A stretch of 18,508 nucleotides of DNA, from IMG/VR virus record IMGVR_UViG_2563366928_000009; one strand, given 5' to 3'. Shown here in pieces: positions 1 to 15,514 of the stretch (the stretch's first letter is position 1; each line of letters begins with the position of its first letter). Under the pieces are notes generated by a model. That model searched no databases, was not told the origin of the DNA, and worked only from the letters and a program-made list of their open reading frames with translations. This DNA comes from a virus (taxonomy: Duplodnaviria; Heunggongvirae; Uroviricota; Caudoviricetes). A program made the position numbers and the translations under genes.

Positions 1-1267
1 GCTTCAGAATGAAATTATATGGACGAAAAATCCCTCTATGCCCATATCCTTAACCTGACTGCACCATGGCAGGTTAAATCCCTTACCCTCGATGAAAATG
101 CAGGTTCCGTTACTGTTACAGTCGGAATTGCTGAAAATACTCAGTTAACCTGTCCGACCTGCAGGAAATCCTGTTCTGTTCACGATCACCGACATCGTAA
201 ATGGCGCCACCTTGATACCTGCCAGTTCATGACATTAGTAGAAGCCGATGTTCCCCGCGTTATGTGCCCGGAGCATGGCTGCCAGACTCTGCCTGTACCG
301 TGGGCAGGTTCCGGCAGTCGGTACACTCTGCTGTTCGAATCGTTCGTGCTCTCATGGCTTAAAATCAGCACCGTTGATGCGGTCAGAAAACAACTTAAAC
401 TTAGCTGGAATGCCGTTGACGGCATCATGACCCGCGCGGTTAAGCGAGGCCTGTCGCGGATTAAAAAGCCTTTATCAGTGCGTCATATGAATGTAGACGA
501 AGTCGCCTTTAAAAAAGGGCATAGGTATATAACCGTGGTATCTGATCGCGACGGGCGGGCACTGGCATTAACCGATGATCGTGGCACAGAGAGTCTTGCC
601 AGCTATCTCCGTTCGCTTACTGACAGTCAGTTGTTGGCCATCAAAACACTGTCGATGGACATGAATGCGGGCTATATAAGAGCAGCGCGTATCCATTTAC
701 CCAATGCGGTCGAGAAAATCGCCTTCGATCGCTTCCATGTGGCGAAGCAACTGGGCGAAGTGGTTGATAAAACCCGCCAGAATGAACATCCGCACCTCCC
801 TGTTGAAAGTCGTCGTCAGGCCAAAGGTACCCGCTTCCTGTGGCAGTACAGCGACAAATGGATGACTGAGTCCCGGCAGGAAAAGCTGATGTGGTTGCGG
901 GAACAGATGCAACAGACAAGCCAGTGCTGGACACTGAAAGAGCTGGCAAAAAATATCTGGGATCGCCCCTGGAGCACAGAACGCAGGAATGACTGGTTGC
1001 AGTGGATATCGCTGGCGTCTGAATGTGATGTGCCGATGATGAAAAACGCAGCGAAAACCATTAAAAAACGGTTATACGGAATACTGAATGCAATGCGTCA
1101 TCGCGTCTCGAATGGAAATGCGGAGGCGCTGAACAGCAAGATCAGACTGCTGAGGATAAAGGCCAGGGGATACCGAAACCGGGAACGCTTTAAACTGGGA
1201 GTTATGTTCCACTATGGGAAACTGAATATGGCGTACTGAGTCTTCCCACCATGATCGGGGAAGACCC
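1..1267 (+). mobile_element. ISL3-family insertion sequence, partial; left end lies outside the window and the right end is not resolved
   Basis: Contains the ISL3-like transposase gene at 19-1239. Only 18 bp precede the start codon, so the left inverted repeat is cut off. An 8-bp-stem inverted repeat (1240-1247 pairing with 1258-1265) follows the stop codon. No terminal inverted repeat could be identified by eye. Confidence 0.45.
19..1239 (+). CDS. ISL3-family transposase (N-terminal zinc finger plus DDE domain)
   Basis: 406-aa ORF with ATG at 19 and TGA at 1237-1239. N-terminal Cys/His cluster (CPTCRKSC...HDHRH...CPEHGC) resembles the zf-ISL3 finger. Central motifs DEVAFKKGHRYITVVSD, LSMDMNAGYI and AFDRFHVAKQLGEVVDKTRQNE match the ISL3 DDE transposase pattern as I remember it. 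Confidence 0.85.
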   Translation: MDEKSLYAHILNLTAPWQVKSLTLDENAGSVTVTVGIAENTQLTCPTCRKSCSVHDHRHRKWRHLDTCQFMTLVEADVPRVMCPEHGCQTLPVPWAGSGSRYTLLFESFVLSWLKISTVDAVRKQLKLSWNAVDGIMTRAVKRGLSRIKKPLSVRHMNVDEVAFKKGHRYITVVSDRDGRALALTDDRGTESLASYLRSLTDSQLLAIKTLSMDMNAGYIRAARIHLPNAVEKIAFDRFHVAKQLGEVVDKTRQNEHPHLPVESRRQAKGTRFLWQYSDKWMTESRQEKLMWLREQMQQTSQCWTLKELAKNIWDRPWSTERRNDWLQWISLASECDVPMMKNAAKTIKKRLYGILNAMRHRVSNGNAEALNSKIRLLRIKARGYRNRERFKLGVMFHYGKLNMAY

Positions 1268-4453: not shown

Positions 4454-5053
4454 TCAGAAACGGTATCCGATACCAACAATAAATGCATCCGTTCGCCAGT
4501 CGCCACTACCGGAACCTTCATAAGCAAGGTCAATGGCCACGGATTCGGTCGGGTTAAACTGCACGCCAGCCCCCCACGCCAGAGAGGTATTGCTGTGGCG
4601 ACCGTCATCACTTCCGGTCAGCACGTCGTGCTTTTTCCCCTTGTTGTCAGTTACGCGGAGATAATCCCCGGAGAAAGTCGACACACGGCTGTAAGCCACA
4701 CCCGCCATCGCATACGCGCTGAACCATTCATTCACGCGCACAGACGGCCCCGCCATTACGCTGAACCAGCGGTTACGCACGGAATCTTCATGCCAGCGGG
4801 TATCGCTGTAGTGCGTTTTTTGCTCATCCTCAGCATTGGCATAACTGAAGGACGTAATCAGCCCCAGCGCGTCCGTAAACTCATAACGGTATTTCACGTT
4901 AATCCCGTTCAGATTATCGCTGCCGGGAGCGTTCGTACGGGCATGAAGATACCCTGCGCTCAGTGTGGACTGATGTTCAGACGCCCATGCAGGCGCACTG
5001 GATACGGACAGACAGATGGCTGCGGACAAAATGGCTGCACAAACTTTACGCAT
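4454..5053 (-). CDS. lom: Lom outer membrane protein (Ail/Lom/PagC family beta-barrel)
   Basis: 199-aa ORF with ATG at 5053 and a GAGAGG RBS. Signal peptide MRKVCAAILSAAICLSVSSAPAWA. C-terminus AIDLAYEGSGSGDWRTDAFIVGIGYRF closely matches lambda Lom (VVDIAYEGSGSGDWRTDGFIVGVGYKF). Confidence 0.92.
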   Translation of the reverse strand: MRKVCAAILSAAICLSVSSAPAWASEHQSTLSAGYLHARTNAPGSDNLNGINVKYRYEFTDALGLITSFSYANAEDEQKTHYSDTRWHEDSVRNRWFSVMAGPSVRVNEWFSAYAMAGVAYSRVSTFSGDYLRVTDNKGKKHDVLTGSDDGRHSNTSLAWGAGVQFNPTESVAIDLAYEGSGSGDWRTDAFIVGIGYRF

Positions 5054-8813: not shown

Positions 8814-8919
8814 ACAGCCTTCCCCTGAATAAATTAACCGCCACTTGCCATTCCGTACAGAAGTCGGATATCCTTCGCCCGAAAAGCATGAAACACATTT
8901 CTGCCATGCTAAAGAGAAA

Positions 8920-8952
8920 CCCCGGTATCAGCAGATACCGGGGTTTTCTTTC
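8920..8952. terminator. strong hairpin with U-rich tracts on both sides (potentially bidirectional terminator) in the I-J spacer
   Basis: 10-bp perfect stem CCCCGGTATC (8920-8929), loop AGCA, GATACCGGGG (8934-8943). Followed by TTTTCTTTC on the plus strand and by the equivalent of TTTCTCTTT on the minus strand. Confidence 0.55.
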
Positions 8953-9018
8953 ATGCCCACCGATAATCCTGTTGGTTAAAACCGGTAATGGCATAAAAAT
9001 TCTGAATATCTTCACATT

Positions 9019-9046
9019 TTCACAAACTGACTGTGGCGCGTATAAT
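9019..9046 (+). promoter_or_regulatory. near-consensus sigma70 promoter on the plus strand, antisense to the tail operon
   Basis: -35 TTCACA (9019-9024), 16-bp spacer, -10 TATAAT (9041-9046). Lies in AT-rich non-coding DNA between I and J. Predicted transcription start near 9052-9054. Confidence 0.5.
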
Positions 9047-9052
9047 TTCTCT

Positions 9053-9149
9053 GCGTTAATTTTTTTGTCGTGATATAAGAATAATTCCTTACACTTAATC
9101 TTCGTAACTCTCCCGCAGTTCCTGTCCGCGATCACTGCGGGATTTTTTT
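9053..9149 (+). ncRNA. candidate small RNA of about 95 nt (promoter to terminator); unnamed
   Basis: Bounded by the promoter at 9019-9046 and the terminator at 9111-9149. No plausible ORF or RBS inside. AU-rich 5' portion followed by a terminator stem-loop and U-tract, an architecture typical of Hfq-binding sRNAs. Inferred, not demonstrated. Confidence 0.35.
9111..9149 (+). terminator. strong Rho-independent terminator on the plus strand
   Basis: TCCCGCAGT (9111-9119), 14-nt loop, ACTGCGGGA (9134-9142), then TTTTTTT (9143-9149). On the minus strand the hairpin is preceded by A's and not followed by U's, so it is plus-strand specific. Confidence 0.65.
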
Positions 9150-9156
9150 ATTCTTT

Positions 9157-11187: not shown

Positions 11188-11528
11188 CAGTTCACCACCT
11201 GCTCAATCGTACAGCTGAAATCACTGTACCGGGCGTTATCCGTGACGCTCCACTCCCGACACACCACCCTCACCGTCCGGTTATGTTTCGGCGGTCGCCA
11301 CAAAAAGGCACGGTAACCACCATGCCAGGATAAAAATTCATCCAGCCAGCGCCGGGTTGACTCATCCGTCACCCGGAACACCGCCTGAAACGTCTTCAGT
11401 CTGGCATTAAGTCCCGTCGGTCGGCGCTGTTCATAACCGTCACCAAACCGAACCCTCACCACCGACGGTTTCTCACTCACCTGCATCCCTTCACGCGGGA
11501 CCAGATGCAGCGTTTTTATCTCAGCCAC
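11187..11528 (-). CDS. M: minor tail protein M
   Basis: 113-aa ORF with GTG start at 11528 (GGAGGA RBS 5 nt upstream), overlapping the H stop. VRVRFGDGYEQRRPTGLNARLKTF...FLWRPP...EQVVN matches lambda M (VRKVRFGDGYSQRAPAGLNANLKTY...FLWTPP...EQVVN). Confidence 0.9.
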   Translation of the reverse strand: MAEIKTLHLVPREGMQVSEKPSVVRVRFGDGYEQRRPTGLNARLKTFQAVFRVTDESTRRWLDEFLSWHGGYRAFLWRPPKHNRTVRVVCREWSVTDNARYSDFSCTIEQVVN

Positions 11529-14500
11529 TCAGCATTCCTCCGTCACGTCGCATGGACAGCATCACCGCCTGCACCCGCTGGTCAATCAGCTGCACAAGAC
11601 TGCCTGCCGCCTCCGGCCCTATCTGTCCGTTAGCCCCGTCATTCTGAATGGCGATGTGGTAGACCGGGGAATACACCAGACCGGCACTGCCGTTCATACT
11701 GCCCACCGCGCGTACGCCCAGCGAGCCATCCGCCGCCCGGGTCAGGGGCATAATGGCTTCAGGTCCGGCTTCCCCCATCAGCCCGGCCCCTTTTGCAAAC
11801 GCAAAGTACGTGGGCGTGTCCACAATGCTGTTGCTGTACGCACTCAGGTTTGCCGAGGTATACACGCCGCCTTTTGCATTGGCCACCGCACCGCCCAGCC
11901 AGTCACCAATGCTGCCAATAAATCCTCCCGCACCGGACATACCGTTTGCCGCCGTCTTAATTCCGTTGACAATCGCGGCATTCATAAGAACTTTTGAGAT
12001 TTCCTGCAGTACGGATGAGGCCCAGTTGCGCCATTCCACTTTGTTTCCGTTCAGCATCTCCGTGATGTTATTCACCAGTCCTGAAATCCCCTCCGTTGCC
12101 AGCTGTGCTGCCTGAGAGGCGTAATCGGATGCATTGTCCACCCAGTTACTGAGCCCCTCCTGCAAGCCTTTCTGCCAGTCCGCACGCTGCGCATCCGATT
12201 CGGCATAAAAGGCTGCCTGGTCCTTAAGGCGTTCGCTCAGATACTGCGCGTTCTGTGCCCGTGCCTGTCTGTAAAAATCCTCACTGATATCCCCGGTCTG
12301 ATACTGAGACTGAAGGTCCGCATCCTTCTGGCGGAAGCTGTCGCGGATCTGCTGCAACTCCCGCATGCGTTCCCTGGCTCGTTCTCCCTGCCCGTACCCC
12401 AGCAGTTCGGCTTCATTTGATGCACGCGCAGCCACATTATCATTCTTCAGGGTCTCTTCCCGGGATCGCAACTGTTCCCGGATTTTTTGCTGGTCAATCA
12501 GGGCCGCATTGCGCAGCAGTTCCTGCTTCTGTATCTCCGTCAGGGTTTTCAGTTCGCCCTGCGCTGTCTGGTACTTCAGCTTCGCCAGCTCTGTATTCTG
12601 ACCCGCCAGTGCCAGTTGCTCTTTCTGCTGCTTCAGTAGCCGGGAAAAACTGTCTTCCGCTTTTTCCGTCTCTGATTTTCCACCCCGGGATTTGGTTTTA
12701 TTCGCCTCGTTATTGCGCCAGGCTTCCAAGGCATTACTGATATAACGTTGTCTCGCCTCCTGATACGGATCACCCACAAAACCGAGGTCATCCGCCGCAT
12801 ACCCCAGTCGGACACGCTCTTTTTCTTCCCCTTTCAGTCTGGACAGGGCCAGCTCACGCTCTGTTTTTGTCAGGGCACTCTGCTGTTTATCATCCAGAGT
12901 GGCCTGTGGCAGCCGTAACGGCACATTCACCAGTCCCTGCCGCTGCTGAAGCAGTTCATTCCCCAGCCCCAGCAGACGGTTGAATTCCGTATGCTGAACA
13001 TTCGTCTGCAGTAATGCCTGGTATGCCCTGTTCTGCTCTGCCGCCTCCTCACGTATCCTCGCCACACGGTTGTATTCCAGTGACGCCAGCGTTTCCTGTA
13101 CAGACTTCGCCTTTTCCTGTATCTGTGTCAGGCGTGACTGCTCGACCGCCAGCCTGCCGGTTGCCTCCGCAAGGCCGTGGGTTATAATCTCCGCACCTGA
13201 ACCACCCTGTGGATTTTCCTGCAGCCAGCGCTGATAGTCAGCAATCTGTGTTTTCAGTCCCCGGACTTTACTTTCCTGCTCAGCAATCAGACGATTCTGC
13301 TCTTCCAGTGCCTCGCGGGTTTTACCCTCATTATCAGCCAGTTCCGGAAGGGTCATTCCCGGTACCTTTGCCCGGATTTCATCAATCGTCGATGCATACT
13401 GACGGGCGGACTCCCTGGCCTGTTCCTGATTCTGGTACACCGTGTACCAGGCACCGGCTCCCAGCATCAGTAAACCGGGTATCCCGCCGACAAGCGAAAG
13501 CAGGGATGCCGCGCCACTTTTCAGCATTCCCGTAACCGACGTGGCATTCTCCAGCGCCTTCCTCGAGGCCGCCACCGCCTGATTCGACTGTACCAGTGCG
13601 GCATTGGCCACAATCATGGCCCGGCGTTTTGCGACGGCATTCTGTGTGGCCAGCGCCTCCGCACTGGTGTTTCTGGCCAGTGCAAGTTCAGCCTGTGCCA
13701 GTTGCCAGGCACGTTCTGCCGCCAGCGCGTCAGCTGCCGCCTTACGCTGCACCTGAACAGACGCATCTGCCTGTGCGGCTGCCAGGGCAACCGTCCCGGA
13801 CTTCGCCGCGATCAGCTCTGTGGTGGCCTTTCCCACGCCTGCGGCCATATTGCCAAAGTACCGGGCCACCCCGACAGCAACCAGCACGCCCGCCGCCGCG
13901 GCCACATTATCAATATGTCCGGCCACACCATTCAGCACGCCGGAGAGCGTTTTCGTCGAGCCGCTGGCCTCATTCACACCGCCCACCCAGGCCATAAAGG
14001 CGTTTTCCACCTTTGTGATACTACCGGAAACCGTTTCCGGCATGGCCGCATATTCATCACGTAATATCCCCAGCTGGCTGATTAACGCGGGGACCACTTT
14101 ATCCGCTGTCAGTTTTCCGTCATCCGCCATTGCCTTCAGATCTTTACGGGCCACCCCCATCCCCGCAGCAAGCGCGCGGATCACCCGGTCGCCATTTTCG
14201 TTAACAGCATTAAATTCTTCGCCACGCAGTACACCCTGTGCCAGTGCCTGGCTGAACTGGGTGATCACCGAACCGGATTCCGCAACTCCAGCCCCTGACA
14301 GTTTCAGTCCTGTCGAAATGGCCTCCGTCACCTTCAGCACATCATCAGCACTGTAACCATATTCACGCATCGAGGCAGCCGAACGGGCAAACAGGGCCGC
14401 ATTATCCGAAAACGCGGTACCTGTCCGCTGACTGATATCCATCAGCACTTTCTGTGATGACGAAAATTCATCGGATGACTGCGACGCCTGTTTCAGACGG

Positions 14501-14607
14501 GCATTTACGGAACTCCACTCATCCGCCAGTGAAATCAGGTGTCCGGTGGCAAAGGCACCGGCAAATGCGCCAGCCACTCCGACAGCAGAACCGCGAATTT
14601 CCGTCAA
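11521..14607 (-). CDS. H: tail tape measure protein H, main open frame (begins 24 codons downstream of an in-frame TAG; see pseudogene feature and finding)
   Basis: 1028-codon frame. The track start at 14607 is a TTG. Long coiled-coil central region. C-terminus HIAIQNDGANGQIGPEAAGSLVQLIDQRVQAVMLSMRRDGGMLSG matches the lambda H C-terminus (VVINNDGTNGQIGPAALKAVYDMARKGARDEIQTQMRDGGLFSG). The same frame continues upstream through a TAG at 14677-14679 to an ATG at 14787. Confidence 0.85.
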   Translation of the reverse strand: MTEIRGSAVGVAGAFAGAFATGHLISLADEWSSVNARLKQASQSSDEFSSSQKVLMDISQRTGTAFSDNAALFARSAASMREYGYSADDVLKVTEAISTGLKLSGAGVAESGSVITQFSQALAQGVLRGEEFNAVNENGDRVIRALAAGMGVARKDLKAMADDGKLTADKVVPALISQLGILRDEYAAMPETVSGSITKVENAFMAWVGGVNEASGSTKTLSGVLNGVAGHIDNVAAAAGVLVAVGVARYFGNMAAGVGKATTELIAAKSGTVALAAAQADASVQVQRKAAADALAAERAWQLAQAELALARNTSAEALATQNAVAKRRAMIVANAALVQSNQAVAASRKALENATSVTGMLKSGAASLLSLVGGIPGLLMLGAGAWYTVYQNQEQARESARQYASTIDEIRAKVPGMTLPELADNEGKTREALEEQNRLIAEQESKVRGLKTQIADYQRWLQENPQGGSGAEIITHGLAEATGRLAVEQSRLTQIQEKAKSVQETLASLEYNRVARIREEAAEQNRAYQALLQTNVQHTEFNRLLGLGNELLQQRQGLVNVPLRLPQATLDDKQQSALTKTERELALSRLKGEEKERVRLGYAADDLGFVGDPYQEARQRYISNALEAWRNNEANKTKSRGGKSETEKAEDSFSRLLKQQKEQLALAGQNTELAKLKYQTAQGELKTLTEIQKQELLRNAALIDQQKIREQLRSREETLKNDNVAARASNEAELLGYGQGERARERMRELQQIRDSFRQKDADLQSQYQTGDISEDFYRQARAQNAQYLSERLKDQAAFYAESDAQRADWQKGLQEGLSNWVDNASDYASQAAQLATEGISGLVNNITEMLNGNKVEWRNWASSVLQEISKVLMNAAIVNGIKTAANGMSGAGGFIGSIGDWLGGAVANAKGGVYTSANLSAYSNSIVDTPTYFAFAKGAGLMGEAGPEAIMPLTRAADGSLGVRAVGSMNGSAGLVYSPVYHIAIQNDGANGQIGPEAAGSLVQLIDQRVQAVMLSMRRDGGMLSG

Positions 14608-14676
14608 CTGGCTGTTCAGCTCAGCCAGGGCGCGTCGCTGCTCCCGGGCGACTGCGGCAGCCTGACGCCCGCCATT

Positions 14677-14787
14677 CTACAGGGTCCGGTAATATTCACT
14701 GCCCATGCGGGAAGCCCGCTGGATCTCCGACTGGAATGACTGCGAATTTGCCGAAATTTTGATAATCAGTTCACGTAACGTCGCCAT
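14677..14787 (-). pseudogene. H: 5' segment of the tape measure gene: ATG at 14787, 36 sense codons, then in-frame amber TAG at 14677-14679
   Basis: RBS GGAGAAAGG precedes ATG 14787. The encoded MATLRELIIKISANSQSFQSEIQRASRMGSEYYRTL follows the lambda H N-terminal pattern (GDLVVDLSLDAARFDEQMARVRR). It is in the same frame as the main H ORF and separated from it only by the TAG. There is no ATG or GTG between the TAG and 14607. Confidence 0.6.
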
Positions 14788-14802
14788 TCACCTTTCTCCG
14801 GA

Positions 14803-14826
14803 CGAAAAAAAACCGCCTCAGCGGTT
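14803..14826 (-). terminator. short hairpin plus U8 tract between T and H (terminator or attenuator-like)
   Basis: On the minus strand: AACCGC, loop TGAG, GCGGTT, then TTTTTTTT, just upstream of the H RBS. Stem is only 6 bp. Confidence 0.4.
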
Positions 14827-14834
14827 CTCATCAT

Positions 14835-15514
14835 TTATGACTGTGCAGCAAGGCTCAGCGCGTCTTCCAGTCCCGCAAAAGGATCCGCTTCCGGCTTGTC
14901 CTCATCCTCGCCCCAGCAGAGCATGGCGTCCTTCAGTGAAACATTCATCCCCTGCGCCCCGAAAACCGCTTTCACGATCTGCGCATTACGGATATCCCCG
15001 CGCTCATCGCCCAGCGGGGACACCCTGTCGAACTCCATCCACATCATCGCCTCGCTCGCACTCAGACTGTGGCGCAGTTCGGATAAGGTGCGCCCCAGAC
15101 GGAGCGCAAGTCGCATCAGAAAGCGAATTTCCGGGCGGGCTACTTTTTTCTTGCCGACTCAGCATCGGTGATCAGTTCCAGTGCCTGACGCAGCAACCGG
15201 GCATGCACCGGACCATAGACAGCCAGCACCTGCTCGCGATCATCTGCGGTGAACACACGTTTCATGTCCTTATCACACAGAACATCACAGAACAACGTCA
15301 CATCCGCCTCCAGGTTACGGCGGGTTTTTGCCACCACCGACAGGGTATCGTCACCCGCATCATCGCCATTAAGAACTTCCCGCCAAAGATACCAGGCCTC
15401 TGCCGAAGGCTCGCGCAGCACCACGCTGACATTCCCCCATTCCGGCACCTTCACCGTTTTATGACGAAATCCGGACAGTCTGGCCAGCGCCAGTGTTTTC
15501 AGATCTTTTGCCAT
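14835..15514 (-). CDS. GT: tail assembly chaperone G-T fusion, made by a programmed -1 ribosomal frameshift at the end of G
   Basis: The G frame ends ...ESARKK then TAG (15140-15142). A slippery heptamer A AAA AAG occupies 15143-15149 on the minus strand. A -1 shift continues as VARPEIRFLMRLALRLGRTLSELR... to TAA at 14835-14837. Position between V and H matches lambda G/G-T. Confidence 0.7.
15140..15514 (-). CDS. G: tail assembly chaperone G (zero-frame product)
   Basis: Preferred start is the ATG at 15514 (MAKDLKTLALARLSGF...), with an AAGGA Shine-Dalgarno 7 nt upstream and 13 nt after the V stop. The alternative in-frame ATG at 15541 overlaps V and lacks a good RBS. Stop TAG at 15140-15142. 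Confidence 0.75.
   Translation of the reverse strand: MAKDLKTLALARLSGFRHKTVKVPEWGNVSVVLREPSAEAWYLWREVLNGDDAGDDTLSVVAKTRRNLEADVTLFCDVLCDKDMKRVFTADDREQVLAVYGPVHARLLRQALELITDAESARKK
15143..15149 (-). promoter_or_regulatory. -1 programmed frameshift slippery heptamer A AAA AAG (G to G-T)
   Basis: An X XXY YYZ motif in the G frame immediately before the G stop codon; the -1 frame downstream is open and continues into the T reading frame. Confidence 0.65.

Follow-up and report, generated by a model that had tools for sequence, protein, structure and literature searches.

When the tape-measure gene of a lambdoid prophage has an amber codon near its start, what does this mean: a dead gene, a stop that the host decodes, a gene restarted downstream, or an error in the assembly? 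The question is posed by an 18,508-nucleotide stretch of prophage DNA (the window) from Escherichia coli KTE24 (GCA_000407865.1, scaffold KE136710.1). Here the frame of an H-like gene on the minus strand starts at an ATG (14787-14785) with GGAGAAAGGTGA just before it, encodes MATLRELIIKISANSQSFQSEIQRASRMGSEYYRTL and then meets TAG, with a further 1051 codons open in the H frame as far as a TGA at 11523-11521. The coordinates, ribosome-binding site, peptide and long continuation given in a preliminary description of this DNA are all correct. The frame that would give the full-length tape-measure protein is thus interrupted by the TAG at codon 37, and the following features were delimited around it.

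11521..14787, minus strand: tape-measure (H-like) gene with one amber codon inside, 1088 codons plus TGA (by translation)
14677..14679 (read 14679-14677), minus strand: amber TAG, codon 37 of H; CAG (Gln) in relatives
14680..14787, minus strand: N-terminal stub of 36 codons, retaining the normal H start and ribosome-binding site
14791-14799, minus strand: H ribosome-binding site, GGAGAAAGG
11521..14607, minus strand: 1028-aa ORF from TTG61, annotated as such in deposited genomes; no convincing ribosome-binding site

The Shine-Dalgarno (SD):anti-SD duplex at the H ATG has a predicted energy of -7.7 kcal/mol. The stub is annotated as a 36-aa gene in the source assembly and in other assemblies, and the exact 1028-aa product has been deposited as EOU75773.1 (E. 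coli KTE24) and under other entries.

The Pfam domains and gene order identify the gene as a tape measure. In an intact homologue that differs from the readthrough product of the window at one residue besides codon 37, TMP_3 spans residues 83-273 (E = 6e-57), Phage_HK97_TLTM residues 411-694 (E = 1e-74) and Tape_meas_lam_C residues 870-941 (E = 2e-17); the same three domains are on record for the window's own 1028-aa product. The gene follows the major tail protein and the G/T chaperone frames with their slippery site, and precedes the M-L-K-I-J homologues.

14835..15116, minus strand: tail assembly protein T frame, intact, 100% identical to the protein of strain B20123
15140..15514, minus strand: tail assembly chaperone G, with slippery AAAAAAG at 15149-15143 and its own TAG (15142-15140) directly after

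Of the genes in the window, G alone is terminated by TAG; 13 others use TGA and 5 use TAA. In role and in gene place (after V, G and T with a G/T slippery site, before M-L-K-I-J), the protein corresponds to lambda gpH, whose C-terminal ~350 residues are homologous to it. The proposed match to the N-terminal pattern of lambda H did not hold, however, as BLASTP similarity is confined to those C-terminal ~350 residues (25% identity, E = 9e-20) and the N-terminal two-thirds has no detectable similarity. The lambda protein is also shorter, at 853 aa against 1088 aa here, and T and H overlap in lambda, whereas in the window they are separated by a 47-nt spacer with a terminator-like hairpin.

To identify the ancestral codon, we compared the locus with its relatives. 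Codon 37 is CAG in all four aligned relatives, namely E. coli AR_0017, CE10 and 07_3636 and the Stx1-converting phage 14040; in AR_0017 and CE10, it is the sole mismatch in a 231-base alignment. With a 451-base query, the ten closest genomes, AR_0017 among them, were one base off the window, and in a codon census all other prophages fetched from outside the TAG clade had CAG at this position. By tblastn, the protein WP_021541925.1 of strain B20123 was covered from residue 1 to 1088 with two mismatches, one of them the stop. The alignment of homologues that the preliminary description had proposed therefore yields glutamine (CAG) as the sense codon. Because relatives outside one clade all carry CAG, the stop is attributed to a single C>T transition on the coding strand (G>A at 14679 on the plus strand), an inactivating change of one nucleotide relative to intact close homologues. 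A Dcm deamination hotspot was considered and rejected, the context CCCTGCAGAA not being CCWGG. Intact homologues, of 1088 or 1080 aa, share the upstream ATG start; the case that the preliminary description gave as refuting, a functional tape measure beginning downstream with its own ribosome-binding site, does not apply. Records of Stx1 and Stx2c phages are ~94-95% identical to the window over the T-H junction, and the first 36 H codons are identical in DNA between the window prophage and Stx1 phages. The best-supported reading of the window is that H is a pseudogene by nonsense mutation, and with CAG homologues and one C>T transition the same holds for the earlier proposal of a nonsense mutation in a tail gene of a defective prophage.

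The stop codon is not peculiar to one assembly. By exact look-up, the 1028-aa ORF was found in 38 index blocks and recorded on 15 contigs (NCBI, ENA and Logan). We checked the DNA of each retrieved locus, and the TAG was present in 21 fetched loci representing 13 independent samples: four isolates (KTE24, CP049609.1, NCTC UGAB01000002 and MDES01000359.1), three Logan read assemblies (ERR2242126, SRR33701471 and SRR7133522) and six metagenome assemblies (ERZ27246621, ERZ28625845, ERZ28602201, ERZ28574055, ERZ918630 and OIEU01000531). A sequencing or assembly error in the source genome was a natural suspicion, the source being a draft scaffold with a 180-N gap just past the window. It is now excluded, with a negligible residual chance, because the 13 independent samples share an identical TAG obtained with differing technologies and pipelines.

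Over 5.2 kb, the TAG carriers differ among themselves by 0-3 SNPs, as against 14-16 SNPs from the nearest CAG prophages, which argues for a single origin and inheritance in one lineage. As judged from these sequences, the distances indicate that the mutation arose once and that one closely related E. coli lineage, including KTE24, carries the TAG. Members of this lineage were recovered as human isolates and in gut metagenomes. Rather than being scattered, the allele stays within this close clade: among complete RefSeq E. coli, 0 of 769 places (659 genomes) were 100% identical to a 61-mer centred on the codon, and neither the GTDB species representatives nor the IMG/VR viral contigs contain the TAG 38-mer. 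A literature search found no paper that mentions KTE24. In KTE24, the only carrier for which the chromosomal junction was retrieved, the junction comprises ISEc53, a DUF1706/ClbS-like gene and btsS; relatives of the window prophage are integrated at mlrA/yehV, next to btsS. In CE10, the tape-measure gene is cut off by a deletion adjoining btsS, so prophages at the mlrA/yehV-btsS site decay in other lineages too. The insertion sequence lies at the tail-fibre end of the window.

19-1239, plus strand: ISEc53 transposase, ISL3 family, between the ClbS/DfsB-like (DUF1706) gene and a DinI-like gene

ISEc53 is also found in B20123 and is missing from AR_0013, the closest relative.

Apart from the amber codon, the morphogenesis genes are in good order. 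Relative to strain B20123, all 18 remaining genes of the window have their full length, and with KTE24 as the reference, 21 other head and tail genes are intact in CP049609.1, in a 23-kb comparison reaching from the gene for the small terminase subunit as far as the tail-fibre region. We found no second head or tail lesion in the TAG carriers, except in the NCTC assembly, where nearly every gene has indels that are most likely long-read errors, and in one metagenome scaffold with a 1-bp insertion in TerL. Two apparent lesions were rejected. The '243-aa' gene call at the window's right edge arises artefactually from the 180-N scaffold gap, which falls in a region of 162-nt tandem repeats, and K, for which CP049609.1 has no gene call, carries a synonymous substitution in an intact ORF. 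The absence of a second lesion fits a young mutation and would be equally expected if the module were still under selection. As a measure of possible relaxed constraint, the ratio of nonsynonymous to synonymous changes is 9:5 within the TAG lineage; in comparisons of the lineage with relatives it is 52:59 for AR_0013 (p = 0.26) and 70:146 for B20123 (p = 0.02). The counts are small, and nonsynonymous changes are generally enriched in recent bacterial polymorphism. What the sequences show is the mutation itself, that it arose once and is inherited, and that the genes around it are intact.

AR_0013, the closest intact relative, carries a complete lambdoid prophage integrated in mlrA/yehV, with genes for an integrase, an excisionase, a LexA-type repressor, replication proteins, QuuD, two tRNAs and lysis. 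In this prophage, a gene for an OmpC-type porin (L037 11530-12612) lies between those for the Q-type antiterminator and the tRNAs, and close to the lysis region there are TolA-like and TonB-family genes, one of each. Sequence variation was also seen in the following genes.

17777-18508 and beyond: repeat gene between the portal and head-tail connector genes (L007 1-1037; L026 5599-6831)
5121-8813, minus strand: J gene
4454-5053, minus strand: Lom-like gene

The number of 162-nt (54-aa) tandem repeats in the repeat gene is variable, and its product measures 353 or 407 aa, a difference seen even among TAG carriers; in the relative L023, the repeat gene and the portal gene form a single fusion that encodes an 861-aa protein. 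PGAP labels such repeat genes 'frameshifted portal'. The KTE24 gap falls in this tandem repeat, and the window ends there. At the other end of the module, no other assembly matched the KTE24 variants of the Lom-like and J proteins. The KTE24 Lom protein is only 89% identical to that of B20123, and CP049609.1, within the TAG lineage, differs from KTE24 by two amino-acid changes in Lom and four in J. These differences indicate faster variation at the host-contacting end of the tail module than in its other parts.

Just upstream of the H ribosome-binding site lies a hairpin with a U8 tract, present as first described.

14803-14826, minus strand: terminator-like hairpin AACCGC-TGAG-GCGGTT followed by a T8 run, in the T-H spacer (by folding and comparison)

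Among the spacers compared (loci L003, L004, L015, L016, L018 and L023), the stems of relatives read AACCGC-TGAG-GCGGTT or AACCTGC-TGTG-GCAGGTT, followed by T7-T9. Since there are two stem versions (CCGC/GCGG and CCTGC/GCAGG), the pairing is maintained by compensatory changes. Shuffled versions of the 76-nt stretch that holds the hairpin fold about equally well (z = -0.26), so the case for it rests on the comparison; it was not among the hits of a simple terminator scan. Both CAG and TAG prophages have the hairpin, sequenced Stx phages included, and by this comparison it is a conserved feature of the prophage family, unrelated to the amber codon. It sits inside the Q-antiterminated late operon. 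Another non-coding stretch of the window, the I-J gap (8814-9156, minus strand), is ~340 nt long, AT-rich and conserved, with a similar size in relatives. It contains a strong hairpin, CCCCGGTATC-TGCT-GATACCGGGG, followed by TTTCTCTTT; a search of the window against Rfam, the I-J gap included, gave no match.

We next weighed the ways in which a TAG-bearing gene might still yield a working protein. If UAG were read as glutamine by a host supE-type tRNA (CUA) or, at a low level, by a near-cognate tRNA-Gln, the wild-type protein would be regenerated, and as few copies are needed per virion, the prophage could be conditionally or weakly viable. Several features would suit such decoding: the ancestral codon is CAG, so that glutamine insertion restores exactly the wild-type sequence; the base after the stop is A, and an A after UAG favours suppression; and apart from the amber codon, the TAG lineage has intact head and tail genes. 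The tRNA that it calls for was not found, however. The window contains no tRNA gene, and a cognate CUA tRNA is absent both from the window and from the whole prophage of the complete relative, whose only tRNAs are a tRNA-Arg(tcg) and one with a CAU anticodon. Efficient suppression would also extend G, which ends in TAG right after its frameshift site, whereas unsuppressed readthrough of UAG is generally well under 1%. Moreover, the allele is missing from IMG/VR viral contigs and from other prophage lineages, and so shows no sign of having spread as a phage. We regard a functional amber codon as unlikely on this evidence. The related idea of a tolerated, leaky or conditional allele, in which glutamine at UAG-A would give the exact wild-type tape measure, is improbable as well; if true, translation would limit the infectivity of a prophage carried by a widespread E. 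coli lineage of the human gut, which would also explain a 23-kb morphogenesis module without a second lesion. An alternative genetic code, with TAG read as glutamine as in some gut phages, might be suspected from a TAG standing in for a glutamine codon. Reassignment is excluded, and its chance is vanishingly small, because G terminates with TAG and no other gene has an internal stop, leaving a single in-frame TAG among the 19 genes; neither the window nor the relative's prophage yielded a suppressor tRNA, and the stop is not conserved among homologues, all relatives having CAG.

Restart downstream of the stop was the remaining possibility, in which translation would resume in frame at CTG54, TTG61 or GTG71 and give an N-terminally shortened working tape measure. 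The preliminary description had noted the lack of any ATG or GTG between the TAG and the downstream frame, which is true up to TTG61; beyond it, codon 71 (14577) is a GTG and codon 116 (14442) an ATG. In-frame TTG and GTG codons thus lie 24-34 codons past the stop, and a weak relay can be drawn through an out-of-frame ATG 2 nt past the TAG, which opens a 19-codon ORF whose TGA lies 8 nt before TTG61, so that the UAG and TTG61 are connected by a short overlapping ORF. A restarted product would keep TMP_3, the first Pfam domain, which starts at residue 83, and early amber alleles, at rpoS codon 33, exist in K-12 stocks (PMC2700278). The initiation signals are nevertheless poor: predicted SD pairing is -3.2 kcal/mol at TTG61 and -2.9 kcal/mol at GTG71, against -7.7 kcal/mol at the real start. 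CTG54 has better pairing (-6.6 kcal/mol) but is a very rare start codon, and the ATG at codon 116 is also a poor restart candidate. The identity of the first 36 codons in DNA up to Stx1 phages suggests constraint on the very segment that a restart would discard. In the lactococcal phage TP901-1, deletion of tape-measure residues 2-31 left heads only and no infectivity, and every deletion within the first 154 residues abolished infectivity (PMC5099701). A product lacking 60 or more N-terminal residues is, by this analogy, unlikely to work. The non-canonical restart proposed earlier is therefore weakly supported at best, given its poor SD sequences and the loss of tails in the TP901-1 deletions, and we consider it very unlikely.

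Loss of function accounts for the locus most simply. It is highly probable that the TAG is a heritable CAG (Gln37) to TAG nonsense mutation that plainly inactivates the gene, in a prophage otherwise intact over 23 kb and at an early point of decay. Ribosomes loading at the normal site would stop after 36 residues, and little or no full-length tape-measure protein would be made. Without this protein, the tail initiator would not form and tail assembly would not start, such that induction would give tail-less heads at most; this loss of tail production is what we infer from the mutation. The Q-modified RNA polymerase of lambda resists Rho-dependent polarity, and for this reason the downstream tail genes would probably still be transcribed, to no purpose. 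The mutation may be recent and carried along by a successful host clone, which fits the lack of further lesions.

The locus can be placed among known systems. Like other defective lambdoid prophages of E. coli, it combines a lambdoid tail module of the Stx-phage type with one inactivating mutation in a morphogenesis gene, inherited vertically with the host; O157:H7 Sakai is said to harbour a pool of defective prophages with point-mutated structural genes. It differs from remnants such as the CE10 prophage in that its head and tail genes, over 23 kb, show no lesion besides the amber codon, which places it at a very early stage of decay. Laboratory amber mutants of the lambda Ham type similarly have a CAG-to-TAG change early in the tape measure, and a glutamine-inserting suppressor would in principle rescue either; here, however, the allele is natural and fixed in a wild E. 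coli lineage, and was not selected in a suppressor host. For the amber at codon 33 of rpoS, a stop-dependent internal restart yielding a functional truncated protein has reportedly been described. That K-12 allele likewise puts an early amber codon into otherwise normal strains (PMC2700278). In the tape-measure gene, by comparison, the restart signals are weak, and the N-termini of tape measures were essential in the one system tested (PMC5099701).

The amber-bearing H gene is an ordinary nonsense pseudogene, a kind of defect already known from defective prophages of E. coli, and represents nothing new in kind. For annotation, a single tape-measure pseudogene accounts for both the 36-aa and the 1028-aa ORF that KTE24 and related genomes have on deposit, and this prophage is best recorded as tail-defective. 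Were the amber codon suppressed or leaky, the locus would offer a natural example, of modest interest, of a prophage that is conditionally viable. The TAG allele provides a convenient single-nucleotide marker of one E. coli lineage and its prophage.
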